56,569 bases of DNA, from NCBI GenBank assembly GCA_020717845.1, contig DYDG01000001.1, positions 1 to 56,569 on the forward strand. The letters are read 5' to 3'. Under the pieces are notes generated by a model. The model was not told where the DNA came from. It did not search any database and saw only the letters and a program-made list of their open reading frames with translations. Shown piece by piece: positions 10,682 to 33,026 of this stretch. Within the stretch, counting starts at the first letter, position 1; every line of letters begins with the position of its first letter. The position numbers and the translations under genes are program-made. The DNA is from Marinifilum sp. (GTDB lineage Bacteria > UBA9089 > CG2-30-40-21).

Positions 10682-13552
10682 TTACAATCCAACCCCACAT
10701 TCCCGCAAAAACCGTCCAGTATATGAATCCTCATTCCTTGCCACATCTTCAGGCGTGCCGACAGCTACTATCTGTCCGCCTTCATCCCCACCCTCTGGGC
10801 CAAGGTCAATGACATAATCAGCGGTTTTGATTACATCTAAGTTATGTTCAATAATAACCACTGTATTGCCAGCATCCCTAAGCCTTAAGAGGACATTCAA
10901 TAGCAGATGAATGTCTGCAAAATGAAGACCAGTGGTTGGCTCATCAAGCAGATAAAGGGTTTTGCCTGTAGAGCGTTTGCTCAATTCTGCAGAGAGCTTC
11001 ATCCTTTGAGCCTCTCCGCCAGAGAGGGTGGTTGCTGATTGTCCAAGCCTAATATATGAAAGACCAACATCCATCAAGGTTTGCAGCTTGCTATGCAGAG
11101 AGGGGATGGCCTTAAAAAAGCCCCACGCCTCTTCCACAGTCATGTCAAGGACAGCGGCAATGCTTTTTCCTTTACACCATACCTCCAATGTTTCCTTGTT
11201 ATACCTTTTCCCTTTGCATACCTCACATGGGACATAGACATCAGGCAAGAAATGCATCTCTATCTTAATGATCCCATCTCCCTGACATGCCTCGCACCTG
11301 CCTCCTTTAACATTAAAGCTAAACCTTCCTGGAGCATACCCCTTCATCTTTGCCTCAGGCAACAATGAGAAGAGCTCTCGAATATGGGTAAATGCTCCGG
11401 TATAGGTAGCAGGATTGGATCTTGGTGTTCTGCCAATAGGCGATTGGTCAATGTTTATCACCTTATCCAGATGCTCCAATCCAGAAACCTTTTCATATTT
11501 GCCTGGCTGAGTATGGCTGTTATATAATTTTTGCATCAAAAGCGGATAAAGGATCTCTCCAACAAGACTGCTCTTGCCAGAGCCTGACACCCCGGTAACA
11601 CAGACGAATAACCCCAAAGGGATCTGGACAGTAATGTTTTTCAGATTATGATGACATGCCCCGGTTATTTCCAAAAACTTCTTACTGCGACATCGTTTAG
11701 CAGGAACAGGAATAACCAGATCACCTCGAAGGTATTTACCAGTAGGAGAGTCCTTGCTGGCTATGATATCCTCAAGGCTTCCCTGAGCCACAATCTTACC
11801 GCCTGCTTCCCCTGCTCCTGGACCAAGGTCAACAATAAAATCTGCCTGCCTGATAGTTGCCTCATCATGCTCTACCACAATAAGGGTATTGCCTATGTCC
11901 CTCAGCTGACACATAGTATTGAGCAGCCTTTGATTATCCCTCTGGTGAAGACCAATACTGGGTTCATCAAGCACATACAAAACCCCAACCAGACCAGAGC
12001 CTATCTGGGTTGACAGTTGAATCCTTTGTGCCTCTCCACCAGAAAGGGTTTTGGTCATCCGATTAAGGGCAAGATAATTCAAGCCAACATTACTCAAGAA
12101 GCCAAGCCTCTCCTGTATTTCCTTCAATATCTTTGCCGCTACAAATCTTTCAAACTCGGTCAAAACAATATTCTCAAAAAAACCCCTTAAGTCCTTGATA
12201 GACATCTCGGTTATCTGACTGATAGACTTCTTGCCTACAGTCACAGAAAGAGCCTCTTTTTTCAACCTTGCCCCATGACAAACAGGACAGGTTCGAACAG
12301 TCATATACCCAGCCATCTCCTCCCGAATCCTTTCTGATTCTGTCTCCTTATGTCTTCGGTCAAGGGTTGGAATCACACCCTCATAACCACCATAAAACCT
12401 TTCCCCATACCTTGTCTGGCAATAATGCCCATCCTTTGAGCCATAAAGAATAAGTCCTTGCTGCTCCTTTGTAAAGTTCCCAAAAGGAACATCCAGCCGA
12501 AACCCTTCCTGTCTGGCTACCCGCTCTATCTGATAGAGCCAGGAAGAGGAAAAGCCCAGGGGAACAATTGCCCCTTCGTAAATGGTTTTTGATTTGTCCG
12601 GCACAATCAAATCAGGATCAATCTCTATCTTAGAGCCAAGCCCTGTGCAGTCTGGACATGCCCCATAAGGGCTGTTAAAGGAAAACATCCTTGGTGACAA
12701 TTCCTCATAGCTAATCCCGCAATCCACACAGGCCAATTGTTCAGAAAAAAGTTTTTCCTCCCCTTCATCAATAACTACCATAACTATTCCCTTAGCAAGA
12801 GCAGAAGCAGTCTCTATGGAATCAGCCAGCCTGCTCCTTGTCTCAGGCTTAAGGATAAGCCTGTCCACAACTATCTCGATACAATGCTTCTTGTTTTTTT
12901 CCAGAGCCAGGAGTGACCCTTCCGAGACCTCTTCAGACAGGTCATATATTTTTCCATCCACTCGAACCCTGACATAACCATTCTTTTTGGCTGAAGCAAA
13001 AACCTGTTGATGCTCTCCCTTTCTCCCTCGAACAACCGGAGCAAGAATCTGAAGTTTTTTGTCCGCTTTTCCTTGTTCGCCCCTTTCATCTGCTTTCAAA
13101 GATTTTTCGTCTAATTCCAACCACAGAGACATGACCTGCTCCACGATCTCGTCCACGCTTTGCCTGCAAATCAGCTTACCGCAATTATAACAATGAGGAC
13201 TACCTATTCTGGCATAAAGAAGACGAAGATAGTCATATATCTCTGTTACCGTTCCTACTGTTGATCGGGGATTTTTTGCAGCTGTTCTTTGTTCGATAGC
13301 AATGGCTGGCGAAAGCCCGCTGATATAATCCACATCAGGCTTTTCCATTTGCTCTAAGAATTGTCGGGCATAAGCAGAGAGGGACTCAACATACCTTCGT
13401 TGTCCCTCAGCATAGATGGTATCAAAGGCAAGAGAAGATTTTCCAGAACCAGAAAGCCCTGTGATTACCACAAGCTTGTTCCTTGGAATCTCCAGGTCTA
13501 TGTTTTTCAGATTGTGCGTTCGAGCACCCTTGATAATAATTTTTTCATCCAA
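10682..13552 (-). CDS. uvrA: Excinuclease ABC subunit A
   Basis: 956 aa with two ABC ATPase modules ([26 protein letters not shown] twice) and zinc-finger cysteines. Confidence 0.97.
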
Positions 13553-13685
13553 GATAACACCCTACCTGATCACTGCTGCACCATAATATTTGAATTCACA
13601 GGCCAACCTCACAGGCAGCCTCTTTGTCCCTCAGCAATTCTCATTACGACAGGCTTGCACAAGAAAGAAAAAATGGGAACGAAAT

Positions 13686-13928
13686 TCCCCTCTTGAGAGG
13701 GGGCAGGGGTGTGTTCTTTAACCCACAGCCCTCTCATTCCCACACCACTCTTCTGTCCTCGTGTTGTTCCCTCGTCCCCGACTCACTCTCAGACATTCCC
13801 CTACTGTTCACTGGCTGATTATTTCTCTGACAAGCTCTTTTAGTTTCGAAGCACAGTAAGTTTTTATTGCGACACTTCATCCTATCCTCTCAAGAGGATA
13901 ACACACCCCTGCCCCTCTCAAGAGGGGA
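13686..13928. repeat. Nested palindromic element with ~29-bp near-perfect terminal inverted repeats (CCCCTCTTGAGAGGGG word family)
   Basis: Left arm 13686-13715 is TCCCCTCTTGAGAGGGGGCAGGGGTGTGTT. Right arm 13900-13928 is its reverse complement minus one G. An extra half-unit lies at 13882-13898. It lies in the parB-uvrA spacer. Confidence 0.8.
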
Positions 13929-13974
13929 TTGCCAGCAATTCTCCCTTTTCTCCAGTTCGCAAAATCTTGCGCCC

Positions 13975-14826
13975 CTACTGCACCCTTTCCAGAATCCTAT
14001 CCAGATCCTCTTGCGAATAAAACTCTATCTCAATCTTTCCTGCACCCTTTGCTGTTCGACTAATCCTAACCTTTGTGCCAAGAGATTGCATCAGTTTTTC
14101 TATACAAGATTCCATAGCAATATCTATGGCTGGCTTCTCTTCTTTTGTCTGCAATGTTTCACGTGAAACATTCTCTTTCATTTTTTTGACAAGAGCCTCT
14201 GTCTCTCTCACCGAGATACCGTTCTTGACAATCTTCCCGCAGACCTCTTTCTGCTCTGTCTCGCTATCCAGGGACAGAATTGCTCGAGCATGTCCCATGG
14301 AGATTGCCCCCTTGGTCACTTCTTCCTGGATGGACTTGGGCAGCTTTAATAATCGCAGGCTGTTGGCGATAGAGCTTCTATCCTTTCCAACCTTTCTCGA
14401 CAAGTCCTCCTGGGTCAGACGAAACTCTCGAATCAATTGTTGAAACGCCTCTGCCTCTTCCATGGGATTAAGGTCTTGCCTCTGGATGTTTTCGATCAAA
14501 CCAATCTCTAAGGCATCCTCGTTTGACACATCCCTCACGATGGCAGGAACCCTTTCTAAGCCAGCCTCATGGGCAGCACGAAGTCTCCTTTCGCCAGCAA
14601 TCAATTCGTATCCATCCCTGTGAGAACGAACAATTATCGGCTGAATAACACCCTTCTCCATGATTGACTCTACCAGCTCTCTTTGCTTCTCTGGATCAAA
14701 GTATCGTCGCGGCTGATATTCTCCAGGAACAATCTCTGTAATCTTGATCTCTCTGACCATCTCCCCGTTTGCCCTTGCCTCTGGGATTAAAGCATCCAAA
14801 CCCTTTCCTAAAGCTATTCTCTGCAT
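13975..14826 (-). CDS. parB: Chromosome partitioning protein ParB/Spo0J
   Basis: LGKGLDALI, the GERRLRAA CTP-binding motif and an HTH (DLSRKVGKDRSSIANSLRLLKL). ATG 14826 is preferred; the ORF extension to 14931 reads through repeat DNA. Confidence 0.93.
   Translation of the reverse strand: MQRIALGKGLDALIPEARANGEMVREIKITEIVPGEYQPRRYFDPEKQRELVESIMEKGVIQPIIVRSHRDGYELIAGERRLRAAHEAGLERVPAIVRDVSNEDALEIGLIENIQRQDLNPMEEAEAFQQLIREFRLTQEDLSRKVGKDRSSIANSLRLLKLPKSIQEEVTKGAISMGHARAILSLDSETEQKEVCGKIVKNGISVRETEALVKKMKENVSRETLQTKEEKPAIDIAMESCIEKLMQSLGTKVRISRTAKGAGKIEIEFYSQEDLDRILERVQ
14155..14170. promoter_or_regulatory. parS: parS centromere site, a perfect TGTTTCACGTGAAACA palindrome
   Basis: Exact 16-bp consensus read directly, inside the parB coding sequence. 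Confidence 0.85.
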
Positions 14827-14864
14827 CCTCTCTTCACTCCTTTGTTGATAATTTTTTATCGTTT

Positions 14865-14929
14865 CGACTTTGCTCAACGACCGCATTCGGTCCCTGAGCA
14901 CTGTCGAAGGGCGACTTTGCTCAACGACC
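14865..14929. repeat. Direct repeat CGACTTTGCTCAACGACC x2, 47-bp period
   Basis: Perfect 18-mers at 14865-14882 and 14912-14929. GCTCAACGACC also occurs in inverted orientation at 10518-10528. Confidence 0.8.
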
Positions 14930-14956
14930 ACACTTCGACAGGCTCAGTGACCGGAA

Positions 14957-14982
14957 TAGAGACGCAAATTTTTGCGTCTCTA
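14957..14982. repeat. Hairpin TAGAGACGCAA-ATTTT-TGCGTCTCTA, with a second copy at 29357-29382
   Basis: Perfect 11-bp stem. The flanks GGAA...CAAT are also shared with the 29353-29386 copy. It sits 9 nt past the stop of the 14991-17093 gene. Confidence 0.8.
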
Positions 14983-14990
14983 CAATGTCC

Positions 14991-17093
14991 TCACGCCTTC
15001 TGGTAAAACCAATAGTATGCTGAAAAACATACATAATAATGTTTCAGCTCCCGATGTAGGGGAAGGCTTATCCTTGTCTGCCTCGAGGTTATCTTGTTTC
15101 CAGGAATTTCATACACTGCCTCTGTCCAGGCATTGTCTGCATTCTCATGTGTCCATACATTCAGGAACTCCCCATTCACCCAGACCTCTATGGGTGTATA
15201 GGTTGATGTCCTCTTGACCATCTTTAGCCCTTTCCCAGGAATAGTCCGAACCACCATGCTCTCTCCACCAGTAATCTGCCTTCCTGCATCGACCACTACT
15301 GCTGACGGATTGTTCTGGTAAGGATACATGCAAGCCTCATCCTGATAGATCAAGCCATAAAACATCCCTGCCTGTGTTTCCCAGAATTTGTAGTGATGAG
15401 CCTTTTCGTTTTCAATATCCCCAACATCAACATAGTCAACCAATCTATACCCCTCTAACTCATTGTTAACAGCATAAACCTTATCCCCTTTGCGGGCAAG
15501 GCTCCAGTCAACCTTATAAACGGTCATGGGCGAAGGGCTGCCGGCAATGGTTGAGTCAATAAGCTTGAACTGACAGATTTCTTCTTTTAACATGCCTATC
15601 TTGTCAAAACTAAACCAGCTTGGATAGATGATAAAATAGTCGGGATATTTTTTTTGGTCAAGTGATTCCAGAAATTCAAAGATGCTTCCAGCCCCATTGA
15701 CCCATGCCCAGCCAGCCTTGTTTGTTCCAAGACCAAGGAGGTCGATTACATATCTATCCCCCAGATACTTTACTGCCCCAAGATCATTAACCGCAACCAC
15801 TGCATCACTGGGAATGTTTTTTCCTATCCATTCCCCAAGAGCCATTTGTTGGTTGTAGATGTCTTTGCAATTTTTTCCATAGGCTACAGAAAAATACAGG
15901 GTATTCAATATGCCAAATAATAGGAAAAAAGAGGCTATGAAAACAAAGCCAACCCTTGTCTTTTTTTCCCCTTTTCCCTCTTTTTCGTCCAATGGCTGAC
16001 AAATCAGCCGGACAAAAAGAGAAAGCCCGCTAACCATAAAGATCAAAAACAAAGGATAAAACGGAATAAGATACCGATGCCAGTGCCATTTAACCGGAAG
16101 GGAAACACAAAGGGAACAAAAGCCTGTCATCAGCAAGCAAATGGTCAATGTCCCAATCCCCAGAGCCTTTTCTCGTATCTCTTTTGTTATAAAATATAAC
16201 ACCCCAATGACTGCAAAAAATAATGAGAATGGGGCAAAATAAATTGACTCCTGTTCTTCATTGGCATACATAGCCGGGATATACTTGCCCTCACACCCAA
16301 AGAATATATCCTTCATGACATAGAAAAAATACTTGCCTGCTGTCGCCGCTATATCCAGCATGTTTCCATTTGGTCTGGAAAGAGGGGACTTGGCAACCAT
16401 GGTGTTAAATGTCAGGCTTCCTGTAAAGGCATAGTTCATGATGACAAAGATCATTCCAAACCCTACAGGTATGAGAAAATAATAGTTTCGTTCCTTACGC
16501 AAAAAGAAGATAAAGCCAAAAAGCACACCAGAAAGGATCAATCCCTCTGGCCTGGTCAAAGCCATAATGCTGGCAAAAACTATGGTCCAGAGATATTTTT
16601 TCTTTTCTGCCTCAAGAAGAAAGGCATATAGGACAGCCAGAATAATACACATAAAAAAGCCTGTCTCCATCCCGCAAAAGAAACTCCAGAGGATTTGACC
16701 ATTAAACAAAAAAAGTAATCCTAAGATAATGCCTGTTGTCTCATTGAATAACCTTCTGCCAATATTGAAGATCAGCAGCGAGGAAACAATCAAAGAGACC
16801 AGCCCCAGTCCAAGCGAATAGGCAAGGATGCCTGTCTTGCCCAGGCCAGCCAAAAACCCAAGGCTCAAAATAAAGGGGTACAACAGACTGGTTGCCCCAG
16901 TAGTTGGACTATCCCCAGTATTGTATTGAAAGGCAGCCCCTTGACAGATTTGCTTGGCATACTGAAAAAAGATAAAGGTGTCATCCAGTGGCGGGGCAAG
17001 ATGGCCGTCTGTATAAAAAAACATTGACCTTAAAAAAACGGCTCCAAGAAGGATCGCTATGGTGCTGAATAATATTGTGTATCGTGTTTGCAT
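14991..17093 (-). CDS. Large polytopic membrane protein. The N-terminal ~500 aa look GT-C (ArnT/PMT-style) and a ~170-aa beta-rich domain follows. Paralog of 17157-19307
   Basis: At least 12 hydrophobic segments. The first loop is YTDGHLAPPLDDTFIFFQYAK with an acidic DD pair. TRPEG motif present; the C-terminus ends YYWFYQKA. ATG 17093 has GAGGAG 5 nt upstream; the ORF track opens at GTG 17132. Confidence 0.6.
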   Translation of the reverse strand: MQTRYTILFSTIAILLGAVFLRSMFFYTDGHLAPPLDDTFIFFQYAKQICQGAAFQYNTGDSPTTGATSLLYPFILSLGFLAGLGKTGILAYSLGLGLVSLIVSSLLIFNIGRRLFNETTGIILGLLFLFNGQILWSFFCGMETGFFMCIILAVLYAFLLEAEKKKYLWTIVFASIMALTRPEGLILSGVLFGFIFFLRKERNYYFLIPVGFGMIFVIMNYAFTGSLTFNTMVAKSPLSRPNGNMLDIAATAGKYFFYVMKDIFFGCEGKYIPAMYANEEQESIYFAPFSLFFAVIGVLYFITKEIREKALGIGTLTICLLMTGFCSLCVSLPVKWHWHRYLIPFYPLFLIFMVSGLSLFVRLICQPLDEKEGKGEKKTRVGFVFIASFFLLFGILNTLYFSVAYGKNCKDIYNQQMALGEWIGKNIPSDAVVAVNDLGAVKYLGDRYVIDLLGLGTNKAGWAWVNGAGSIFEFLESLDQKKYPDYFIIYPSWFSFDKIGMLKEEICQFKLIDSTIAGSPSPMTVYKVDWSLARKGDKVYAVNNELEGYRLVDYVDVGDIENEKAHHYKFWETQAGMFYGLIYQDEACMYPYQNNPSAVVVDAGRQITGGESMVVRTIPGKGLKMVKRTSTYTPIEVWVNGEFLNVWTHENADNAWTEAVYEIPGNKITSRQTRISLPLHRELKHYYVCFSAYYWFYQKA

Positions 17094-23307: not shown

Positions 23308-24666
23308 ATGGAAACAGTAACACAGCTTTTAGAAGAGTATAAGATTCAGATCAGAGAGAATCAGTCCTATGGGATTGGCGGGCAGAATTGCTTTCCTTTT
23401 CATGCCTTTGAAGGCACCCTTCCTCATATGCCCAAGCTTGCTCTTGAGGTGTATGATACCCCGGATGAGGAATGGCCAGAGGCTGTGGCTGAGGTCTATC
23501 GGGATGTGTGGAACAATCCAGTTGAATGGGCAAAAACTGTTGAAGCTAAATATAAGCCTGATATGATCTGCTTGCAGCTTGCCAGCACAGACCCAATGGG
23601 TGATGATGCCTCTCCTGAAAAAGCAGCTGATATAGCTAAAAGCGTTGCTGAGGCAATAAGCCTGCCATTGATTGTCTATGGATGCGGAAATGCGGAAAAG
23701 GATGGCAAGGTATTAAAAAAGGTGGCTGAGGCATTAGCTTTCAAAAAATCACTTATCGGCCCAGTAGCAGAAGGGAATTATAATACAATTGGGGCAACCA
23801 TTCTGGCTTATGATCATTATGTTATTGCCCAAACACCAACAGATGTCAACCTTTGCAAACAGCTTAACATTCTTTTGTCCAACCTTGGAGTGTCTCTTGA
23901 CAAGATCATTATTGACCCTACCCCTTCTGCCCTTGGTTATGGGTTGGAATATACCTATTCTATCATGGAAAAGATCCGCTGTTCTGCCTTCCAGACCAAT
24001 GATGATAAACTGAATCTGCCAATGATCGGAAATATTGCCCGTGAGGTCTGGAAGATAAAAGAGGTAAAGATAGATGATCCGTGCATGGGGAATACCAAAA
24101 CACGAGGTATTATGTTTGAAGCAATGACAGCTATCTCATATATCCTTGCAGGTTCAGATATTGTGGTGCTCCGTCATCCACAGACACTGGCTTTGGTTAG
24201 AAAATGGCTGGCAGACATGTCTGGCACAAAGGCAGAGGTGAAAACCGAGCCGATAGGGGTTAGTAGTCAGGGATTAGAGGTGAGTTGTGAAAAGTTAGCA
24301 GATAAGAGCATAATGCAGGATACAGAAGCAGAATCAGTTAATGAAAATAAAATCGTCCAGTCTGCCTTCTCTGCCTTCCGCGAACTGGGTGAAGGGCTGG
24401 CAGGGGATGTGTATGCCGCAGCAATAGCCCTGGATCTGAAACAACATGGGCTTGAGCCTGAAAAGGATGTTCCATTAGCAATAACCTATAAGGGTGTAGA
24501 GATTGGACAGATTAAGAATAATATCCGTGTTGGCAATACCCTTGTGGTCATAGGCTGCAAGGATAAGAATATCCTGCATAATTACCTTGCATCACAAGGG
24601 CTGTCTTACGGAATAGGATTGTCGTTTGAAGAGACATTGAATATTGTTTACGCAGAAAGGGGGTAA
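23308..24666 (+). CDS. acsD: Corrinoid Fe-S protein small subunit (AcsD/CdhD delta-like) fused to a C-terminal degenerate GxxExxY module
   Basis: The first ~305 aa are collinear with AcsD/CdhD (DMICLQLASTDP, LPLIVYGCGN, IIDPTPSALGYGLEYTYS). Residues 345-452 carry the GxxExxY pattern (ELGEGLAGDVY...YKGVEIG...). Confidence 0.8.
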   Translation: METVTQLLEEYKIQIRENQSYGIGGQNCFPFHAFEGTLPHMPKLALEVYDTPDEEWPEAVAEVYRDVWNNPVEWAKTVEAKYKPDMICLQLASTDPMGDDASPEKAADIAKSVAEAISLPLIVYGCGNAEKDGKVLKKVAEALAFKKSLIGPVAEGNYNTIGATILAYDHYVIAQTPTDVNLCKQLNILLSNLGVSLDKIIIDPTPSALGYGLEYTYSIMEKIRCSAFQTNDDKLNLPMIGNIAREVWKIKEVKIDDPCMGNTKTRGIMFEAMTAISYILAGSDIVVLRHPQTLALVRKWLADMSGTKAEVKTEPIGVSSQGLEVSCEKLADKSIMQDTEAESVNENKIVQSAFSAFRELGEGLAGDVYAAAIALDLKQHGLEPEKDVPLAITYKGVEIGQIKNNIRVGNTLVVIGCKDKNILHNYLASQGLSYGIGLSFEETLNIVYAERG

Positions 24667-24680
24667 AAGGGTAACCGATT

Positions 24681-25061
24681 ATGGGAATGACACATGTAAC
24701 GGCTGCGGTGGTTAATCTGAGAGATCCAGAAAAACGTTGGGAAGAATTATTCCTTGTGGATACTGGTTCCATTGATTGTATGGCTCCTGGGAGATGTTTG
24801 CGAGAGATTGGGATTGAACCCAGTGGAAAACGGACATATGAGCTGGCTGATGGGACAGAAATAAAGATGGATATTGCTGCTGTCCAGATAGAGTTTATGG
24901 GCGAGATAGTTGGTGCAACCATAATCTTTGGCAAGGATGATGTAGAACCTATACTGGGTGTAACAGCTCTTGAGTCGGTTGGAATTGAGGTTGATCCTCA
25001 GAACCAGCGACTGAAACGGCTGCCTGCTGTTCGGTTGAAACGAGTTAAGGCTTCAGTTTGA
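24681..25061 (+). CDS. Retropepsin-like clan AA aspartyl protease (single DTG domain)
   Basis: 126 aa. LFLVDTGSIDCMAP active-site motif; ILGVTALESVG; size and pattern of single-domain bacterial/archaeal retropepsin-like proteins. Confidence 0.7.
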   Translation: MGMTHVTAAVVNLRDPEKRWEELFLVDTGSIDCMAPGRCLREIGIEPSGKRTYELADGTEIKMDIAAVQIEFMGEIVGATIIFGKDDVEPILGVTALESVGIEVDPQNQRLKRLPAVRLKRVKASV

Positions 25062-25084
25062 ACAATGCGTTAACAGAAAAGGTA

Positions 25085-25105
25085 ACACAAGCATCTTGCT
25101 TGTGT
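25085..25105. repeat. Hairpin ACACAAGCA-TCT-TGCTTGTGT
   Basis: Perfect 9-bp stem between the protease and the CODH-like gene. Related words occur at 51926-51941 and 52153-52160. Confidence 0.7.
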
Positions 25106-25177: not shown

Positions 25178-26938
25178 ATGAAAAGCTTTACAGAACGATT
25201 AGCAAAACATAAAACCTGTCCCTTTTATGAAGAGGGTGCCTGCTGCCGGGCATGTTACATGGGTCCGTGCAGGATTACGGATAAGGCAAAAGAGGGTGTT
25301 TGCGGTGCCACAGATTCTACCATCTCTGCCAGAAACCTTGGCAGAATGGCTGCTGCTGGCGCATCATCCCTGTCTACAGCTGTTCTTTCTCTGTTAGACA
25401 GCCAGAAGAAAAAGGAATGGTTCTCCCCACAAGGGGAAAAGGGACTGGATCTGAGCAAGGTTCTACCTATAGAAAGGGTTAGCCTGCTCAATCGTCTGCA
25501 TCTTATCCCACGAAATATCCAGCGGGAGATAGTAGAGCTGCTTCATCGGGTCCACATGGGCGTTGACCAAGAGTGTGAACATATTCTTTTTCAAGTTCTT
25601 CGCATGAGCCTTGGCAGTGTGCTTTCATCTGCACTCCTGTCAGCAGACGAAAAGTCATCGATGGTCCATGTTGATACATCTGCACTTTCTCTGGAAAAGC
25701 CAAATGTTATCCTGTTTGGTAATGTCCAATTGAATGATGACAAGGTAAACACTGTCCGTGTAGATTCCTTGCTTAGCTTGGAGGTATTTCTTGCCTCTGG
25801 ACTGGTTGATGTGATATTTGCCGAACAGCTACCAGCATCTATCAACTATATATCTGCCTGTTATCATACTACTTGCGTCTCTGTTTCTTCAGAGGTTGTG
25901 GCTAAGGCAATCGAGAATCAGGTTAAACGCACTCAAGTCTTGAGTTTCAAGGGAACAGTCTCCCAGCCAAAGCTGTCAGCAGGAATACTTAAAAACGCCC
26001 TGATGGATTCAAGTATCCGTGGGATTGTCTGGCTTGCTGGATGTATAGACCCACGCCTTGAAGATAAAAGAAAGAAAATCGTCGAGGAATTGGTTGCTCA
26101 GGATATTCTGGTGATAGTTACTGGCTGTTCCATTAACCAGCTCATGGAGACTGGGCTGCTTCATCAGCCAGTTGCTCCGGTTGGTGGGTTTTTGAAGGAA
26201 TTTTGTGAGAAAACAGGTATCCCGCCAGTGGTCTATCTGGGAAGCTGCTTAAAAGAAGGGGCAGTCATCAGGCTGCTGAATGAGATAAGCAAGTCCGCAG
26301 CCATCGGAGATTTTTCGTCCTTGCCTGTAGGCTTGATCCTTCCCACATGGCGAAGCGAACGGAATATCTCCCTGATGCTTGGAGCCATTGCCTGCGGCAT
26401 AGCGGTTCAAGTTTCTTCCCCTCTTCCAATCAATTCAGAGGTGCGAGGGTTTTTAGAAAATAATTGCAATGAGATTATCCTTGGACATCTCCTGAAGAAT
26501 GATGTCCCTATCGTAGAATATATCAACCGCAAAAGAGAACGGTTGTCGCTTGCTTCATCCTTGAGCCTTTATATGCCAAAAACTTCTATCCTTAAAGATG
26601 ATCTGGATAAGGTGGCTGCGGCTGCATTTTCTGTATACAAGGAATTGGGACATGGGTTGTCTGTTGATATCTATAAAAACGCATTGGTTGTAGAATTGAA
26701 GCAGCTTGGGCTGCAAGCATCTATGGTAAAGGTGCCTATCACCTACCTTGGTTCCATAATCTCTGAGCAGGAGGAATTGCTGGTAGAAAATGCTGGCATA
26801 GTCTGCATAGGCAAGGATGCTGCTGTAAAAAAGCGGTTAAAAAAAGCTCTGACAGAGGCAAATAAGGAACAGGGGCTATATGTCATCTTTGATACGGAGA
26901 TGCTGAGGATAGGGCATATTGTATTGGCAAAAGGATAG
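25178..26938 (+). CDS. CODH (CooS)-like paralog with incomplete C-cluster ligands, fused to a C-terminal degenerate GxxExxY module
   Basis: The N-terminal Cys pattern CPF..GACCRACYMGPCRI...GVCGA is retained, as are GC(I)D, TGC and GSC. There is no HGH, GICCT or VDVQC equivalent. The last 113 aa follow the GxxExxY pattern. ATG 25178 has GGAGGA 8 nt upstream; the ORF track opens at 25058. Confidence 0.75.
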   Translation: MKSFTERLAKHKTCPFYEEGACCRACYMGPCRITDKAKEGVCGATDSTISARNLGRMAAAGASSLSTAVLSLLDSQKKKEWFSPQGEKGLDLSKVLPIERVSLLNRLHLIPRNIQREIVELLHRVHMGVDQECEHILFQVLRMSLGSVLSSALLSADEKSSMVHVDTSALSLEKPNVILFGNVQLNDDKVNTVRVDSLLSLEVFLASGLVDVIFAEQLPASINYISACYHTTCVSVSSEVVAKAIENQVKRTQVLSFKGTVSQPKLSAGILKNALMDSSIRGIVWLAGCIDPRLEDKRKKIVEELVAQDILVIVTGCSINQLMETGLLHQPVAPVGGFLKEFCEKTGIPPVVYLGSCLKEGAVIRLLNEISKSAAIGDFSSLPVGLILPTWRSERNISLMLGAIACGIAVQVSSPLPINSEVRGFLENNCNEIILGHLLKNDVPIVEYINRKRERLSLASSLSLYMPKTSILKDDLDKVAAAAFSVYKELGHGLSVDIYKNALVVELKQLGLQASMVKVPITYLGSIISEQEELLVENAGIVCIGKDAAVKKRLKKALTEANKEQGLYVIFDTEMLRIGHIVLAKG

Positions 26939-26972: not shown

Positions 26973-28901
26973 ATGTTTGAAGAGATAACTGTTTGTCCAG
27001 CTTCGCAGGCAATGCTACAAAAGGCAAAGGATGAAAATATCCGGACATGCTTTGACCGGATAAGTGATCAAAAAAGCTGTCCCTTTGGTGATTCAGGGGG
27101 ATGCTGTCGGGTTTGCAGTACTGGTCCATGTAGAATATCACCCAAAAAGGCTGATGAAGAAACAGGGCTTTGCGGTGCTTCAGCAGATGTTATTGCAGCC
27201 AAAAACTTTGTCCGTATGATTGCAGGCGGTGCATCTGCACATTCGGACCATGGACGGGGTGTGGCAGAAGTGCTGTTGTTGGCAGCTAAGGGAGAGATTC
27301 CCGGCTATACGATAAAGGATACAAAAAAACTCCTGATGCTCGCTGAGGTTTTTGAGATACCGACTGAGAATAGAAAGGCAGAGGATATTGCCATTGAGCT
27401 GGCAGAGAAGTGTCTGAATGAGTTTAGCAAGGATGAACCGCTTACCTTCCTGAAAAGGGCACCGCTAAACAGACAAAATTTATGGAAAGAAAAGGGTATT
27501 GCCCCAAGAGGGATTGATAAGGAAGTGGTTGAGTCCATGAGCATGACCTTGATGGGAAATTCCCTTGATTATAAAGAGATTATGAGAGCTGGGACACGTG
27601 CTGCACTCGCTGATGGCTGGGGCGGATCCATGATTGGGACTGAGCTTCAGGATGTCTTGTTTGGCACACCAAAACCTATACGGTCTAAGGTAAACCTGGG
27701 GGTGCTTAAAAAGGATGAGGTAAATATCATTGTTCATGGACATGAGCCGCTTCTTTCTGAGATAATCGTTATGGTGGCAAAGCAGCAGGATATGCTTGAT
27801 TATGCTAAAAAACATGGTGCCAGGGGCATTAATATTGCCGGTATATGTTGCACCGCCAATGAGGTCCTGATGCGTCATGGGGTTCCGCTTGCCGGCAACT
27901 TTATCCAACAGGAATTGGCTATCATTACCGGTGCTGTTGAGGCAATGGTGGTTGATGTCCAGTGTGTATTCCAGAGCCTGCCTCAGATAGCTCACTGTTA
28001 TCATACAAAGGTTATTACTACCAACAAAAGGGCAAAGATACCCGGAGCAGTTCACATTGAGTTTGATGAGCATGATGCTGTCCAGTCTGCAACTGAGATT
28101 ATCCGCATGGCTATTGAGAATTACCCAAAAAGGGATCAGATCAAGGTTGACATCCCTGATGAAGCCATTGACCTGGTAGCAGGGTTCTCCCATGAGACCA
28201 TAAACCACATGTTGGGTGGCTCATTCCGTGCCACCTACAGACCATTGAATGATGCCATCATTGATGGACGGATACGAGGCGTAGTAGGCATTGTTGGCTG
28301 CAATAATCCAAGGGTCCGGCATGATGATATTCATATTACCTTAGCCAAAGAGTTGATTGCTAAAGATGTGCTTGTTGTTTCAACAGGTTGTGCGGCTATG
28401 GCGTTTGGCAAGGCAGGACTACTGCTTCCAGAGGCAGCAAAATACGCAGGACCAGGTCTGGCTGAGATATGTGAGACAGTTGGTATTCCGCCAGTGCTTC
28501 ATTGCGGAAGCTGTGTGGATAACTCAAGGCTGCTGATTGCCGTAAGTGAGATAGCCCACATAGGCGGATTGGGTGATGATATAGGCGGGCTTCCTGCCTG
28601 TGGCTGTGCCCCTGAATGGATGAGCGAAAAGGCTATTGCCATTGGACAATACTTTGTTGCCTCTGGGGCACCGGTATTGTTTGGTGTAGGATTTCCGATT
28701 ACTGGCGGTGGGATGAAAGACCTGCTGTTTAAGGAATACTGGGATGAGTATACTGCTTTATGGGCTGTTGAGCCTGACCCGATCAAACAGGCAGAAATTC
28801 TTGTTAAATGGATTGATAATGCCCGTGAAAAATTAGGCATAAAGGAAAGACCTCCACGTGTGCTTTATGATATGGCTATGAGGAGGGAGTTGAAGTTTTA
28901 A
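26973..28901 (+). CDS. cooS: Anaerobic Ni-Fe carbon monoxide dehydrogenase catalytic subunit
   Basis: All signature motifs are present (CPFGDSGGCCRVCSTGPCRI, VHGHEP, GICCTANE, VDVQC, VGCNNP, STGCAA, GSCVDNSR). ATG 26973 has GGAGGAGG upstream. Confidence 0.93.
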   Translation: MFEEITVCPASQAMLQKAKDENIRTCFDRISDQKSCPFGDSGGCCRVCSTGPCRISPKKADEETGLCGASADVIAAKNFVRMIAGGASAHSDHGRGVAEVLLLAAKGEIPGYTIKDTKKLLMLAEVFEIPTENRKAEDIAIELAEKCLNEFSKDEPLTFLKRAPLNRQNLWKEKGIAPRGIDKEVVESMSMTLMGNSLDYKEIMRAGTRAALADGWGGSMIGTELQDVLFGTPKPIRSKVNLGVLKKDEVNIIVHGHEPLLSEIIVMVAKQQDMLDYAKKHGARGINIAGICCTANEVLMRHGVPLAGNFIQQELAIITGAVEAMVVDVQCVFQSLPQIAHCYHTKVITTNKRAKIPGAVHIEFDEHDAVQSATEIIRMAIENYPKRDQIKVDIPDEAIDLVAGFSHETINHMLGGSFRATYRPLNDAIIDGRIRGVVGIVGCNNPRVRHDDIHITLAKELIAKDVLVVSTGCAAMAFGKAGLLLPEAAKYAGPGLAEICETVGIPPVLHCGSCVDNSRLLIAVSEIAHIGGLGDDIGGLPACGCAPEWMSEKAIAIGQYFVASGAPVLFGVGFPITGGGMKDLLFKEYWDEYTALWAVEPDPIKQAEILVKWIDNAREKLGIKERPPRVLYDMAMRRELKF

Positions 28902-28966: not shown

Positions 28967-29359
28967 ATGCAATACGAAAAGGTTCTTGATGTTATGACCC
29001 GTGGGGTAATAGCTGTTCATCTTGACGATTCAGTACGCACCGTAGCTCAAACACTGAGCCAGAACAAGATACATGCTGTATCTGTGGTAACAAAGGATGG
29101 AGAGGTAGCCGGGGTAATCTCTGAGATAGATGTTATCGGTGCTATTGATGAAGACATCGATAACCTGAAGGCAGAGGATATCATGTGTTCTTCCTGTATC
29201 CGAACCATTACCCCGCAAAGCCCATTGATAGAGGCAGCAAAGATGATGCAAACAATGAAATGTCATCGGTTGTTGGTCATGGGCGAAGGCTCAAAAGATG
29301 ATGTAGCTGTAGGGGTATTGTCTGCAAGTGATATTGTCGCTGAAATGGCTAAGGAATAG
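28967..29359 (+). CDS. CBS-domain pair protein
   Basis: 130 aa with two CBS motifs (VMTRGVIAVHLDDSV...HAVSVV, IMCSSCIRTITPQSPL...HRLLVM). Confidence 0.8.
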   Translation: MQYEKVLDVMTRGVIAVHLDDSVRTVAQTLSQNKIHAVSVVTKDGEVAGVISEIDVIGAIDEDIDNLKAEDIMCSSCIRTITPQSPLIEAAKMMQTMKCHRLLVMGEGSKDDVAVGVLSASDIVAEMAKE

Positions 29360-29382
29360 AGCCGCAAGATATTGCGTCTCTA
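29357..29382. repeat. Second copy of the TAGAG(A/C)CGCAA-N5-TGCGTCTCTA hairpin
   Basis: TAGAGCCGCAAGATATTGCGTCTCTA, with one stem mismatch. It starts within the CBS-gene stop codon. Confidence 0.75.
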
Positions 29383-29422: not shown

Positions 29423-31633
29423 ATGTCGAAAATTATTGCATCTGCCGCAATCCGTGGAGCGTATAAGTTAGTCGATCGAGCTGAAAATGAGATTAAATCA
29501 GCAGTAGAAAAGTTTGGCAAGGATAGGAAGGTTGAATTTCCCAATACAGCCTATTACCTGCCTATTATTTATGGGATGACCGGAATAGCTGTAAAAAAAT
29601 TAGGTGATATGGATGAGGTGCTTAATATAGCTAAAGGGCTTCTGCCACCACATCCGTCAGAGAGTGTCTGGCTGCCCTATCTGGGCGGAACATTGGACGC
29701 TGGTATGGCAACGCTGTTTGTTGAAGAGATGATTGAGGCATTGAAATACTTAGAAGAACCTATTCCGTATCTGATTGCTCCATCACCAGATGAAAATAAT
29801 CTCTGGATTGGGGCAGCAGATGATAAGATATTGCGAGAGCGAGGGATAGAATTTGTAGATGGGACTGCCCCAGGTTTTGCAGCCTGTGTCGGCTCACTTC
29901 CTGATGCAGAGACTGCGGTAAAAATAGCCCAGGAGCTTCAGGAAAAAAGCCTTTATGTATTTATGTGTGCCCAGCATAATGGGAAAGGTATGGCTGAACA
30001 GTTGAAAGAAAAAAATATCCAGATGGGGTGGGAAACAAGGCTTGTCCCGTTTGGACAGGATGTTACCTCTGCTGTCTTTGCCCTTGGTTTTGCTGCCAGA
30101 GCAGCCATGTCCTTTGGCGGGGTAAAACCAGGGGATTATAGAAGGATATTGATGTATAACCGCCATCGGGTCTTTGCCTTTGTCTTAGCACTCGGTGAGG
30201 TTACAGATGAATGGTATGCTACGGCTGCTGGTGCTATTAACTATGGTTTTCCAGTAATTGCTGATACAGATATTCCTACTATTTACCCAAGAGGAATATG
30301 TCTTTATGAGCATGTAGTTCCAAATGTTTCTCATGAGGAGATGGTTGCAAAGGCTTTACAGGTCAGAGGGTTAAAGGTGGTTCATGTGAATATAGACATC
30401 CCTGTTGCCTATGCACCTGCCTTTGAGGGTGAGCGAATCAAGAAAGAGGATGTCTTTGTAGAGATGTGCAGCAGCAGAACAAAGAAACCCTCCTTTGAAT
30501 TTGTAACCATGAAACCAATTGAAGAGGTAGAAGATAGCCGGGTAGAGATAATTGGACATGATCTTGATGAGATAAAAGAAGGCGATCTCTTATCACTTGG
30601 GATTGTTGTGGAGATAGCAGGGGCAAGGTTCCAGAAGGATTTTGAGCCTATCCTTGAGCGACAGATACATAAATTTGTCAATGAGGCACAGGGCATCTGG
30701 CATGCAGGGCAACGAGATATTAACTGGGTCAGAATAAGCAAGGCTGCCTTTGCAAAAGGCTTCAGACTGCGGCATTTTGGAAACATCCTTCATGCCAAGA
30801 TCCATGAGGGATATTCAGGGATTGTAGATAAGGTTCAGGTGAAGATATATACAGATGAGGAAAAGGCAAGGGAATTATTGAATATAGCCCGAGCTTCTTA
30901 TGTAGAAAGAGATGAGCGAACCGCTGGTATGACCGATGAGGGTGTGGATGTATTCTATTCCTGTGCCCTCTGTCAATCCTTTGCTCCAACCCATGTTTGT
31001 ATTGTTACCCCAGAGAGACAGGGGTTGTGTGGAGCCTATAGCTGGCTCGACTGTAAAGCATCCTACGAAATAGACCCATACGGACCTAATAAGCCTGTCA
31101 AAAAAGGAGAGGCAATTGACGAGAAGAAGGGTGCCTGGAAAGGGATAAACGAGGCTATCGTAGCCCTGTCTCAAGGCAAGATAGAGCGAATGAATGCCTA
31201 CACCATGATGGAAGACCCTATGACCTCGTGTGGTTGTTTTGAATGTATCTCCTGCCTCTTGCCATTGTGCAATGGGATCATGACCGTAGACAGGGATTCA
31301 AGCATGATGACCCCATGCGGGATGAAGTTCTCCACCCTTGCCGGCTCTGTTGGCGGAGGCGTGCAGTCGCCAGGGTTTATCGGCCATTCCAAGCTTTATA
31401 TCTCCAGCAAGAAGTTTGTCTCTGGAGACGGCGGGCTTTTAAGGCTTACATGGATGCCAAAAAACCTGAAGGAACAGCTTCGGGAAAAATTGGAAAAGCT
31501 ATCAAAAGAGCTGGGTGTAGAAGGGTTTGTCGATATGATTGCCGATGAAACCATAGCTTCAACACAAGAAGAGGTCTATGAGCATATGCAGAGGGTTGGA
31601 CATCCAGCCTTGAATATGGAGTCAATAGTATAG
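29423..31633 (+). CDS. acsB: Acetyl-CoA synthase (CODH/ACS alpha subunit, AcsB)
   Basis: 736 aa. N-terminus NTAYYLPIIYG...IEALKYL. A-cluster motifs CALCQSFAPTHVCIVTPERQGLCG and SCGCFE. Confidence 0.93.
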   Translation: MSKIIASAAIRGAYKLVDRAENEIKSAVEKFGKDRKVEFPNTAYYLPIIYGMTGIAVKKLGDMDEVLNIAKGLLPPHPSESVWLPYLGGTLDAGMATLFVEEMIEALKYLEEPIPYLIAPSPDENNLWIGAADDKILRERGIEFVDGTAPGFAACVGSLPDAETAVKIAQELQEKSLYVFMCAQHNGKGMAEQLKEKNIQMGWETRLVPFGQDVTSAVFALGFAARAAMSFGGVKPGDYRRILMYNRHRVFAFVLALGEVTDEWYATAAGAINYGFPVIADTDIPTIYPRGICLYEHVVPNVSHEEMVAKALQVRGLKVVHVNIDIPVAYAPAFEGERIKKEDVFVEMCSSRTKKPSFEFVTMKPIEEVEDSRVEIIGHDLDEIKEGDLLSLGIVVEIAGARFQKDFEPILERQIHKFVNEAQGIWHAGQRDINWVRISKAAFAKGFRLRHFGNILHAKIHEGYSGIVDKVQVKIYTDEEKARELLNIARASYVERDERTAGMTDEGVDVFYSCALCQSFAPTHVCIVTPERQGLCGAYSWLDCKASYEIDPYGPNKPVKKGEAIDEKKGAWKGINEAIVALSQGKIERMNAYTMMEDPMTSCGCFECISCLLPLCNGIMTVDRDSSMMTPCGMKFSTLAGSVGGGVQSPGFIGHSKLYISSKKFVSGDGGLLRLTWMPKNLKEQLREKLEKLSKELGVEGFVDMIADETIASTQEEVYEHMQRVGHPALNMESIV

Positions 31634-31660
31634 TATGTTTGCTTAAGAGAAAGGTGATTG

Positions 31661-31790
31661 GTAACCATTCAGAGTGTAATGAAGGAAAAAGGGGAAATAG
31701 GGAAAAATGGAAAAAAGAATCTATGGAATAATTAGATTTCCCCTTTTTCCTTACTTTTCCATTTTCCCTTATTTACACCTGAACGCTTAC
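31661..31790. repeat. 130-bp palindromic element, copy B of the 20132-20258 family
   Basis: Left arm GTAACCATTCAGAGTGTAATGAAGG (31661-31685). The diverged right arm CCTTATTTACACCTGAACGCTTAC is at 31767-31790. Same GGAAAA/GGGGAA-rich core. It lies between the convergent genes acsB and arnB-like. Confidence 0.8.
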
Positions 31791-31799
31791 GGTGATTAT

Positions 31800-33026
31800 T
31801 TACTTGCTGTAATAGCCAATCACCTTTCTCACAGCCTCAATCACATCACACACATCCTGTTCTGCAAGCCCTGGATACAGTGGCAAGGAGAGTATCCTTT
31901 CAGCTGCATATTCAGTCACAGGAAATGCCCCTTCACTGAAACCAAACCGCTGCCGATAATATGGATGGAGGTGCAATGCCTGAAAGTGGACGCTAACCCC
32001 GATATTTTCCTTTTGTAGGGCAGAAAGAACCTTGTCCCTTGAAGCATTCAACATATCTGTTTTGAGCATAATAACATAAAGATGCTCAGCGTGCTTGATG
32101 TCTGGTATCCTGCCGATACGAACGATAGCCTCCATATCCTTAAATGCCTCATCATATGCAGCTACATGTTTTTGCCTTAGTTTCAAAAAATCCTCAATCT
32201 TTGCCAATTGACACAGCCCAAGCGATGCCTGAATATCGGTCATATTATATTTATACCCTGGATATAAAACATCATAATGCTGATACCCTTCAGGGGAATA
32301 CCTTTTCCACGCATCCTTGCTCATGCCATGAAGTGCCAGGACACGAATCTTTTCTTCTAATTCCGTAGAATTGGTGGTCAGCATCCCGCCCTCTGCGGTA
32401 GTAAGATTTTTTGTGGCATAAAAGGAAAAGGCAGTCATATCACTGATAGAGCCTACTTTTTTGCCGTGATATTCTGTTTCTGTCGCATGAGCGGCATCCT
32501 CAATGACTATAAGATTATATTTCTTAGCCAGCTCAAGGATCTTATCCATCTCACATGGACAGCCGGCATAATGAACCGGGATGATTGCTTTTGTCTTTGA
32601 AGTAATCTTTTCCTCAATCTTATTGACATCAATGTTCAATGTCCCTGGATCCACATCAACAAAGACCGGGTCAGCCTGAACATGAACAATAACATTGGCT
32701 GTAGCACAAAAGGTCATGGGTGTAGTAATCACCTCATCCTTTTCGCCCTTTTCTTCCTTTTCTTCCACCTTCCCTATCCCTGCAGCAACCAATGCCAGAT
32801 GAAGGGCTGCTGTGCAGGAATTAACAGCAACAGCATGCTCACTTCTGGCATATTTAGCAAATTCAGCTTCAAACTGCTTTGTTTTTGGGCCAGTAGTCAA
32901 CCACCCTGACCTTAGTGTCTGGATAACCGAGAATTCTTCTTTCTCATCAAGCAGTGCCTGATGAAAGCTAAGGAATGTCTCCCTTACTGCTGTTCCGCCC
33001 TCAATAGCTGGTATATTTGTCTTCAT
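31800..33026 (-). CDS. DegT/DnrJ/EryC1/StrS-family sugar aminotransferase (ArnB-like)
   Basis: 408 aa with a PLP-dependent fold-type I sugar aminotransferase pattern (SGWLTTGPKTKQFE, AVNSCTAALHLAL, FSFYATKNLTTAEGG). Carries an EEKEEKGEKDE insertion. Confidence 0.85.
   Translation of the reverse strand: MKTNIPAIEGGTAVRETFLSFHQALLDEKEEFSVIQTLRSGWLTTGPKTKQFEAEFAKYARSEHAVAVNSCTAALHLALVAAGIGKVEEKEEKGEKDEVITTPMTFCATANVIVHVQADPVFVDVDPGTLNIDVNKIEEKITSKTKAIIPVHYAGCPCEMDKILELAKKYNLIVIEDAAHATETEYHGKKVGSISDMTAFSFYATKNLTTAEGGMLTTNSTELEEKIRVLALHGMSKDAWKRYSPEGYQHYDVLYPGYKYNMTDIQASLGLCQLAKIEDFLKLRQKHVAAYDEAFKDMEAIVRIGRIPDIKHAEHLYVIMLKTDMLNASRDKVLSALQKENIGVSVHFQALHLHPYYRQRFGFSEGAFPVTEYAAERILSLPLYPGLAEQDVCDVIEAVRKVIGYYSK

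Follow-up and report, generated by a model that had tools for sequence, protein, structure and literature searches.

A degenerate CooS paralog in the acetyl-CoA synthase gene cluster of Candidatus Desantisbacteria as a candidate CODH/ACS pseudo-subunit

Described CODHs and the CooS paralog of the window

The carbon monoxide dehydrogenases that carry nickel (Ni-CODHs) have been surveyed on a large scale, and the four cysteines of the B-cluster together with the three C-terminal cysteines of the C-cluster were found to be their most conserved positions (Inoue et al. 2019, PMC6344411). The groups A-4 and A-6 have been described as incomplete in their C-cluster and acid-base signatures, with the histidine and the first cysteine missing (PMC6344411, Table 2). 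Here we report on a degenerate paralog of the CODH catalytic subunit CooS, which is encoded beside a bona fide cooS and close to acsB on contig DYDG01000001.1 (56,569 nucleotides, the whole stretch of DNA analysed, hereafter the window) of an uncultured groundwater bacterium belonging to Candidatus Desantisbacteria. The paralog is very probably not a CO dehydrogenase. Like the groups A-4 and A-6, the paralog family has lost the histidine and the first cysteine of the C-cluster and has changed acid-base residues. However, those groups are archaeal proteins of the Cdh type (clade A), which have no D-cluster cysteines and keep the second C-cluster cysteine, whereas the paralog family is of the CooS type, keeps the D-cluster, is without the second cysteine and carries large deletions and a fused domain. 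No described Ni-CODH group is also without the second cysteine, or has such deletions or a fused domain.

With the canonical clade E CooS/AcsA proteins (D. vulgaris, 6b6v/6vwy; Thermococcus sp. AM4, 6t7j; and the neighbouring gene) the paralog shares the Prismane/CODH fold, the type II D-cluster motif, the four B-cluster cysteines, the equivalents of Cys446, Cys476 and Cys526 and a remnant of the tail. It differs from them in having 24-28% identity, a deletion of about 170 aa in total and an extra GxxExxY domain, and in being without His261, Cys295, Cys333, His93 and Lys563 (C-cluster ligands and acid-base residues are numbered throughout as in CODH-II). The mini-CooS of Thermosinus keeps all the ligands and is hence distinct from the paralog. 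Functions other than CO oxidation are known or have been argued for the CODH scaffold in the clade B RfCODH of Ruminococcus flavefaciens (PMC13592312), and the HCPs are related to the same scaffold (PMC10502027). RfCODH, CODH-V and the HCPs resemble the paralog in that the CODH scaffold is kept while CO oxidation is, or in the paralog appears to be, lost or strongly reduced, and the scaffold is possibly reused. In contrast to the paralog, in which the ligands and the elements carrying them are deleted, these proteins have a full-size pocket with a modified cluster, and RfCODH still has a C-cluster. Among the NCBIfam models no HCP model matched the paralog, the only matches at E <= 0.01 being TIGR01702 and TIGR04256. 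We take the HCP pattern, partly after PMC6344411, to be Glu at the Cys526 position with His and Glu at the His261 and Cys295 positions; the paralog has Cys, Asn and a deletion at these positions, respectively.

Before their analysis, the 2019 and 2022 surveys of Ni-CODHs dropped sequences in which cluster residues were deleted or mutated (PMC6344411, PMC8776680), and because both removed damaged-cluster sequences, conserved pseudo-CODHs such as this family went undescribed. Our literature search found no paper on this family, on a CooS pseudo-subunit or on a GxxExxY fusion to Wood-Ljungdahl proteins.

Metal sites, selection and the fused module of the paralog

The gene starts with the ATG at 25178, which is preceded by a GGAGGA ribosome-binding site 8 nt upstream, and the homologs share this start methionine in the MAFFT alignment. 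In a preliminary description of the window the gene had been ended at 26596, which is wrong, as the open reading frame extends to 26938 and its last ~110 aa form a GxxExxY/PDDEXK_3 domain. The CODH part has ~470 aa compared to 642 and has lost ~170 aa across several deletions. Split into three pieces, the Prismane/CODH domain was detected by Pfam (PF03063, E 1.8e-43); the match to TIGR01702, the model for the catalytic subunit of anaerobic CODH, was likewise in three pieces and scored 159.3 bits, below the equivalog cutoff of 478. The neighbouring cooS scored above this cutoff with 634.8 bits and has all 15 checked residues, in agreement with its earlier naming as a bona fide cooS. The two proteins are 24% identical (BLASTP, E 1e-38). 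The top matches of the paralog in a phmmer search of the PDB were the D. vulgaris and Thermococcus AM4 CODHs (E ~1e-39), and its AlphaFold2 model (pLDDT 81, pTM 0.72) matched CODH structures in Foldseek (6vwy, E 9e-25, TM 0.58).

We checked the ligands by BLASTP against the neighbouring cooS, by phmmer against PDB chains (D. vulgaris CODH 6vwy) and by MAFFT alignments of 17 and 108 sequences. All approaches were concordant: the equivalents of His261, Cys295 and Cys333 are missing and those of Cys446, Cys476 and Cys526 are present (Table 1), and none of the approaches recovered a substitute or overlooked His or Cys ligand. The preliminary description, based on an alignment by eye, had claimed that three of the six C-cluster ligand motifs were missing while the B- and D-cluster cysteines were retained; both claims held in the formal alignments, and every motif that it quoted was found in the translation at the place given. 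The D/B-cluster motif, CPF..GACCRACYMGPCRI..GVCGA, spans residues 14-44 of the paralog. Its six cysteines were kept in all of these alignments and in all 11 family members covering the segment, the twelfth member (P0014) being without its N-terminus. The absence of the GICCT segment was confirmed as well, but not its size, which had been put at ~70 aa; the two gaps, of 29 and 16 aa, amount to about 45 aa. The other deletions comprise ~52 aa of the helical domain, ~40 aa ahead of the Cys446 equivalent and the N-terminus. The ligand pattern was the same in all 12 family members, which are mutually 62-100% identical, and because of this identical pattern chance or a sequencing error is ruled out.

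In addition to what had been described before, both acid-base residues are lost. The AHSDH motif has become SLSTA, with His93 replaced by Leu and His96 by Ala, and Lys563 is replaced by Arg, in each case in 12 of 12 members; R392 and R395 are invariant within the family. The earlier statement that the protein is probably non-CO-oxidising is thus supported by the loss of three ligands and both acid-base residues in every member, with no substitutes aligned. In the small MAFFT alignment (12 family members and canonical CooS), the residue after the former Cys333 position was Cys in six members (VIFC followed by D or E), Ser in four, Tyr in one and Ala in the window protein. This variable cysteine looks like the final stage of ligand loss inside the family. 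It was considered as a conserved ligand one residue past the Cys333 position and rejected, as the window protein has Ala. The invariant Cys430 and His437 are specific for the family and lie, by rough residue counting, in the C-terminal segment approaching Val610 of CODH-II, a residue that has been mutated in tunnel-engineering structures.

The paralog is under purifying selection. The pairwise ratio of nonsynonymous to synonymous substitution rates (dN/dS, omega) against seven relatives was 0.14-0.21 for the whole gene, compared to 0.055-0.08 for cooS, 0.056 for acsB and 0.14-0.17 for the acsD fusion. The constraint was uneven along the protein. Residues 11-70 with the D- and B-clusters were by a clear margin the most conserved part, with 94% mean identity, 78% invariant columns, a dN of 0.053 and an omega of 0.03-0.12. 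The C-terminal Rossmann-like domain, which holds the three retained and also conserved C-site cysteines, had an omega of 0.09-0.15. The two least constrained regions were the GxxExxY module (omega 0.13-0.32) and the middle-domain remnant, the site of the lost ligands, which had 24% invariant columns and an omega of 0.13-0.37 and was the least constrained region in most comparisons. In an aquifer metatranscriptome, zero-mismatch contigs were found at 25525-25767 and 26633-26917 of the paralog, and also in acsD, cooS and acsB. The dN/dS values, the uneven constraint and the transcript-like fragments together strongly disfavour a pseudogene.

The C-terminal module of 110 aa scored above the thresholds of both PF13366 (E 6.7e-9, 36.6 bits, cutoff 22) and TIGR04256 (38.4 bits, cutoff 35) and in this agrees with the GxxExxY proteins. 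It differs from these in being fused, in having its catalytic residues replaced and in having no close free-standing relative, as none was found in a search with the module alone. A second copy is fused to AcsD, the small subunit of the corrinoid iron-sulfur protein (CFeSP), and the two modules are ~31% identical over the full length and 42% over 55 aa (E 2e-9). The catalytic residues of GxxExxY/PD-(D/E)XK proteins are presumably the Glu of GxxExxY, followed by an Asp and ExK. Compared with this consensus, both modules are without the Glu and without the Asp and ExK (GLSVDIY, EELLVEN and VCIGKD in the paralog; GLAGDVY, NNIRVGN and VVIGCK in AcsD), and by these motifs both appear catalytically degenerate. 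The AlphaFold2 model of the module (pLDDT 86) has the order alpha-alpha-beta-beta-beta-alpha-beta-beta with a PD-(D/E)XK-like core, and Foldseek gave weak matches (E ~0.04) to PD-(D/E)XK nucleases (lambda exonuclease, Cas4, Hjc); a sequence search of the PDB gave no match for it. Ahead of the module lies a short conserved linker, a remnant of the CooS C-terminal tail (RVLYDM to SLYMP). The linker motif L-x-x-Y-x-P was also considered as a cleavage site of the neighbouring aspartic protease and was rejected, as it aligns with the tail motif RVLYDM of CooS.

A candidate iron-sulfur pseudo-subunit and competing explanations

Based on the residues lost and on the regions under constraint, we consider it moderately probable that the paralog is a catalytically dead, CooS-derived, Fe-S-carrying pseudo-subunit of the Desantisbacteria CODH/ACS system. 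It would be unable to assemble the [Ni-4Fe-4S] C-cluster or to turn over CO or CO2, and would act as an iron-sulfur accessory subunit. In the structures of CODH-II and the R. rubrum enzyme, the D-cluster of the CODH dimer is held by two cysteines from each subunit, and the electrons pass from the C-cluster to the B-cluster of the partner and then to the D-cluster (C to B' to D). Because the D-cluster spans both subunits and the electrons exit via the partner's B-cluster, a dead partner keeping B and D would still wire a live C-cluster. In the favoured arrangement the paralog may form a heterodimer with the neighbouring CooS, in which it would wire the single live C-cluster, and a pseudo-subunit is favoured because the constraint has the pattern expected from selection in a heterodimer with a live CooS. 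The paralog and CooS share the type II form of the D-cluster motif (Cys-X7-Cys-Cys; motif types according to PMC6344411). The electron-transfer or scaffold role proposed in the preliminary description fits the same selection pattern, in which the B/D segment is the most and the middle remnant the least constrained. A homodimeric three-cluster electron-transfer protein would be a close alternative under the same heading.

The degenerate modules of the paralog and AcsD may serve as docking modules, holding the corrinoid protein near CODH/ACS. A tie to AcsD through the C-terminal module had been proposed before; the module is indeed shared (PF13366/TIGR04256 in both), and the physical tie is what we infer. 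An asymmetric CooS:pseudo-CooS heterodimer, in which the paralog takes the place of one CooS protomer, passes on the electrons of the single live C-cluster through its B-cluster and its half of the D-cluster, and additionally pairs by its module with the AcsD module to give a permanently tethered CODH/ACS-corrinoid supercomplex, is a doubtful elaboration. If true, this supercomplex would parallel, by convergence, the five-subunit ACDS of archaea, with a pseudoenzyme and two domesticated nuclease folds as its building blocks.

The locus has a pseudo-CODH fixed within an acetyl-CoA synthase operon and a dead-nuclease module common to this protein and the small subunit of the corrinoid protein. 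As a structural or redox partner of CooS, the paralog would be the first known case of a CODH/ACS pseudo-subunit, and half-site wiring (C to B' to D) and corrinoid-protein tethering in bacteria could be tested on it in a natural system. The scope is limited to a single isolated family from one uncultured phylum, and we infer the mechanism.

Several observations weigh against a pseudo-subunit. The three retained C-site cysteines are invariant and are not obviously needed by a pure scaffold; possibly they bind a remnant cluster that has its own function. The invariant and family-specific pair Cys430/His437 is unexplained. One family member (locus L005/L013, 63% identity) is found on an 11-kb contig, not beside acs genes, showing that the tie to the operon is not absolute. 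Neither the 56-kb window nor the 21-kb locus of a relative contains acsC, acsE or cooC (nor cooF, cooT or cooJ), and a complete corrinoid protein for docking is not evident there. The RNA contigs are of low depth and may represent DNA carry-over.

The retained cysteines are also the starting point for the best-surviving alternative, a repurposed enzyme, which we regard as rather unlikely. In such an enzyme C289, C317 and C357 would bind a [3Fe-4S], [4Fe-4S] or hybrid-type cluster for another small-molecule redox reaction, perhaps with Cys430, His437, Glu360 or solvent as an extra ligand and with electrons supplied by the B- and D-clusters. The invariance of the three cysteines in 12 of 12 members, the well-constrained Rossmann-like domain (omega 0.09-0.15), the invariant and family-specific Cys430 and His437, and the CODH-scaffold precedents with non-CO functions (clade B RfCODH, PMC13592312; HCP, PMC10502027) agree with it, and a three-Cys remnant with its own chemistry would add one more reaction to those of the CODH/HCP scaffold. 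However, there is no conserved fourth ligand beside the former Cys333 (Cys 6, Ser 4, Tyr 1, Ala 1), and the middle domain, which forms half of the pocket, was under the weakest constraint in most comparisons and is missing whole secondary-structure elements. In addition, both acid-base residues are missing and no NCBIfam HCP model matched.

Less likely still is a maturation scaffold or metallochaperone for CooS, which, like NifEN for NifDK, would pre-assemble or deliver Fe-S or Ni fragments and so offset the missing cooC. The gene lies directly upstream of cooS in most relatives, cooC, cooT and cooJ are missing from the window and the relative's 21-kb locus, and the equivalents of the Ni ligand Cys526 and of Cys446 and Cys476 are kept. 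However, a CooS-derived chaperone has no precedent, cooC is possibly elsewhere in the genome, and neither the strongest constraint, in the B/D region, nor the module shared with AcsD would be explained. Finally, a decaying functionless duplicate carried in the operon could account for the multiple deletions and the relaxed rate (dN/dS ~0.19 vs ~0.07 for cooS; 72-76% aa identity vs ~90% for cooS in the same genomes), but is very improbable given a frame that is intact in 12 of 12 members from at least seven species-level genomes, a dN/dS well under 1 in every region, 78% invariant columns in the B/D segment, conserved synteny and the transcript-like fragments.

Family, origin and genomic surroundings

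A search of 5.8 billion proteins returned a tight family (P0003-P0016, 62-100% identical), all from Candidatus Desantisbacteria or unclassified 'bacterium' metagenome-assembled genomes, with canonical CooS proteins of 26-28% identity as the next matches. The members are named 'GxxExxY protein' or 'hypothetical' in the databases, apart from one JGI record that was automatically named CODH catalytic subunit. When 1.84 billion representatives clustered at 50% identity were searched with a profile, a single family representative scored 1092 bits and the next score was 184 bits; this search found no intermediates between the family and other CooS. The GTDB species genomes contained seven full-length loci.

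The origin of the family was studied by structure-database ranking and phylogeny. The ranking of the PDB CODHs was near-identical for the paralog and the neighbouring cooS: D. vulgaris and Thermococcus AM4, then C. autoethanogenum, then CODH-II and CODH-IV (swapped), and CODH-V last. The CooS proteins of D. vulgaris and Thermococcus belong to clade E (Inoue et al., PMC6344411). The family has a very long branch in the trees, with a stem of ~2 substitutions per site, and by this phylogeny is placed within no characterised active CODH clade, a placement that would have spoken against the earlier description. In a quick tree that included other degenerate sequences, the family fell inside a clade with ACS-type CooS (99% SH-aLRT) and grouped with other long branches at 89% only. 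In a careful tree without these sequences it attached on an internal branch between two canonical groups, and one clade of the family and Desantisbacteria CooS was not rejected in an approximately unbiased test (p 0.184). The origin may be either a within-lineage duplication followed by fast divergence or an older split.

Four other CooS-like proteins from metagenomes (P0124, P0143, P0129 and P0127) resemble the family in keeping the B- and D-cluster cysteines and the last three C-cluster cysteines without His261 and Cys295. Cys333 is also gone in P0124, P0143 and P0129, and P0124 has PSWRSEQ where the family has PSWRSER. They differ from the family in scoring at most 184 bits to the family profile, compared to 1092 within it, and in having no GxxExxY domain, and no acs genes were found near the four in the contexts examined. 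In the tree they group weakly with the family, possibly through long-branch attraction. More such proteins (P0146, P0162, P0132, P0123; loci L018-L023) keep the last three or four C-cluster cysteines without His261 and Cys295, and some are also without Cys333 and Lys563. Degenerate CooS-like genes were seen beside a ferredoxin gene, between nrdR and acpP, and after tonB/exbBD. It looks as if CooS had decayed or been repurposed several times independently, and the published surveys filtered such proteins out.

Table 1. Features of the paralog gene and of its surroundings in the window
Feature	Position	Strand	Description	Basis
Degenerate CooS paralog gene	25178..26938	+	586 aa + stop	ORF (open reading frame) list, sequence, Pfam
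D- and B-cluster motif	25217..25309	+	D-cluster C14, C22 (type II Cys-X7-Cys-Cys); B-cluster C23, C26, C31, C42	MAFFT, site table
ASSLSTA	25361..25381	+	canonical ASAHSDH; acid-base His lost; ~52-aa helical-domain deletion follows	MAFFT, site table
ILFGNV	25709..25726	+	residues 178-183; canonical VHGHEP; His261 equivalent is Asn182	BLASTP, MAFFT
Middle-domain remnant	25727..25831	+	GICCT strand (Cys295) gone via two deletions, 29 + 16 aa	BLASTP, phmmer, MAFFT
FAEQL	25817-25831	+	residues 214-218; in place of VDVQC; Cys333 lost	BLASTP, phmmer, MAFFT
LAGCIDPR	26033..26056	+	residues 286-293; C289 is the Cys446 equivalent	invariant in 12/12 members
VTGCSI	26117..26134	+	residues 314-319; C317 is the Cys476 equivalent	invariant in 12/12 members
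LGSCLKEG	26237..26260	+	residues 354-361; C357 is the Cys526 equivalent, Ni ligand in canonical CODH	invariant in 12/12 members
WRSERN	26348..26365	+	canonical WMSEKA; Lys563 equivalent is Arg395 (SEK to SER)	MAFFT, site table
Cys430 and His437	26459..26494	+	invariant, family-specific (NNCNE, LGHLL); not in canonical CooS	MAFFT, conservation
GxxExxY / PD-(D/E)XK-fold module	26603..26935	+	without catalytic residues	PF13366, TIGR04256, AcsD alignment, AlphaFold2, Foldseek
acsD fusion	23308..24666	+	CFeSP small subunit fused to degenerate GxxExxY module (residues ~340-452)	CdhD + PDDEXK_3; NF003376 370 bits; TIGR04256 44 bits
Aspartic protease	24681..25061	+	clan AA (retropepsin-like); adjoins paralog in most relatives	TIGR03698 71.8 bits; synteny
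cooS/acsA	26973..28901	+	bona fide; D-, B-, C-cluster and acid-base residues complete	TIGR01702, site table; best PDB matches Thermococcus AM4 + D. vulgaris CODH
CBS-pair protein	28967..29359	+	between cooS and acsB in relatives too	Pfam, synteny
acsB	29423..31633	+	acetyl-CoA synthase with CODH-binding N-terminal domain	PF18537, PF03598, PF19436

The order acsD fusion, protease, paralog and cooS was found in the loci L001/L010, L006, L008 and L009, followed by the CBS and acsB genes where the contig was long enough. The place of the paralog between acsD and cooS is thus fixed in most relatives. The rest of the 56-kb window contains housekeeping genes (serS, murJ, uvrA, parAB, rsmG, mnmG, dnaA, dnaN, eno and others). 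Among the full-length members the most diverged one, at 4946-6736 of L005 (= L013), has toxin-antitoxin genes and NHL fragments upstream and is followed downstream by a different aspartic protease gene and by a cluster for chaperone-usher pili. The clan AA aspartic protease adjoining the paralog is 79-96% identical across genomes whose paralogs share 64-80% (for instance 91% in L012, 94% in L006). Its copies lie at 1914-2288 and 4425-4784 of L001, 9621-9983 of L006 and 3-260 of L012, and one relative has a second copy of 53% identity. The much better conservation of the protease compared with its neighbours fits either strong constraint or recent spread.

Some variation was also observed around cooS and acsB. 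In some CG2_30_40_21-like strains a ParE-toxin gene is present between cooS and the CBS gene (7790-8056 of L025/L026), and L024 is without it. Downstream of acsB, L024 has HdrA-like, FlpD/MvhD-like and ferredoxin-like genes (11341-15362, minus strand) that are split by a HEPN/nucleotidyltransferase pair, and the relative's 21-kb locus has HdrA-, FlpD/MvhD- and CCG-type genes downstream; at this place the window has sugar-modification genes. Contigs of the DNA runs X1 and X2 join 29381 to 25082 with TGTA between, and there are loose ends at both places (~25082-25105 and ~29357-29381). The junction is probably a short repeat common to both intergenic regions and to other loci; alternatively, a co-occurring strain may have its genes in a variant order. 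At 31428-32000 of the window the word depth in the source-like DNA run rose from 15.7 to 25-48 over a palindromic element (31661-31790) downstream of acsB, and the many short contig ends in this region fit a multi-copy repeat.

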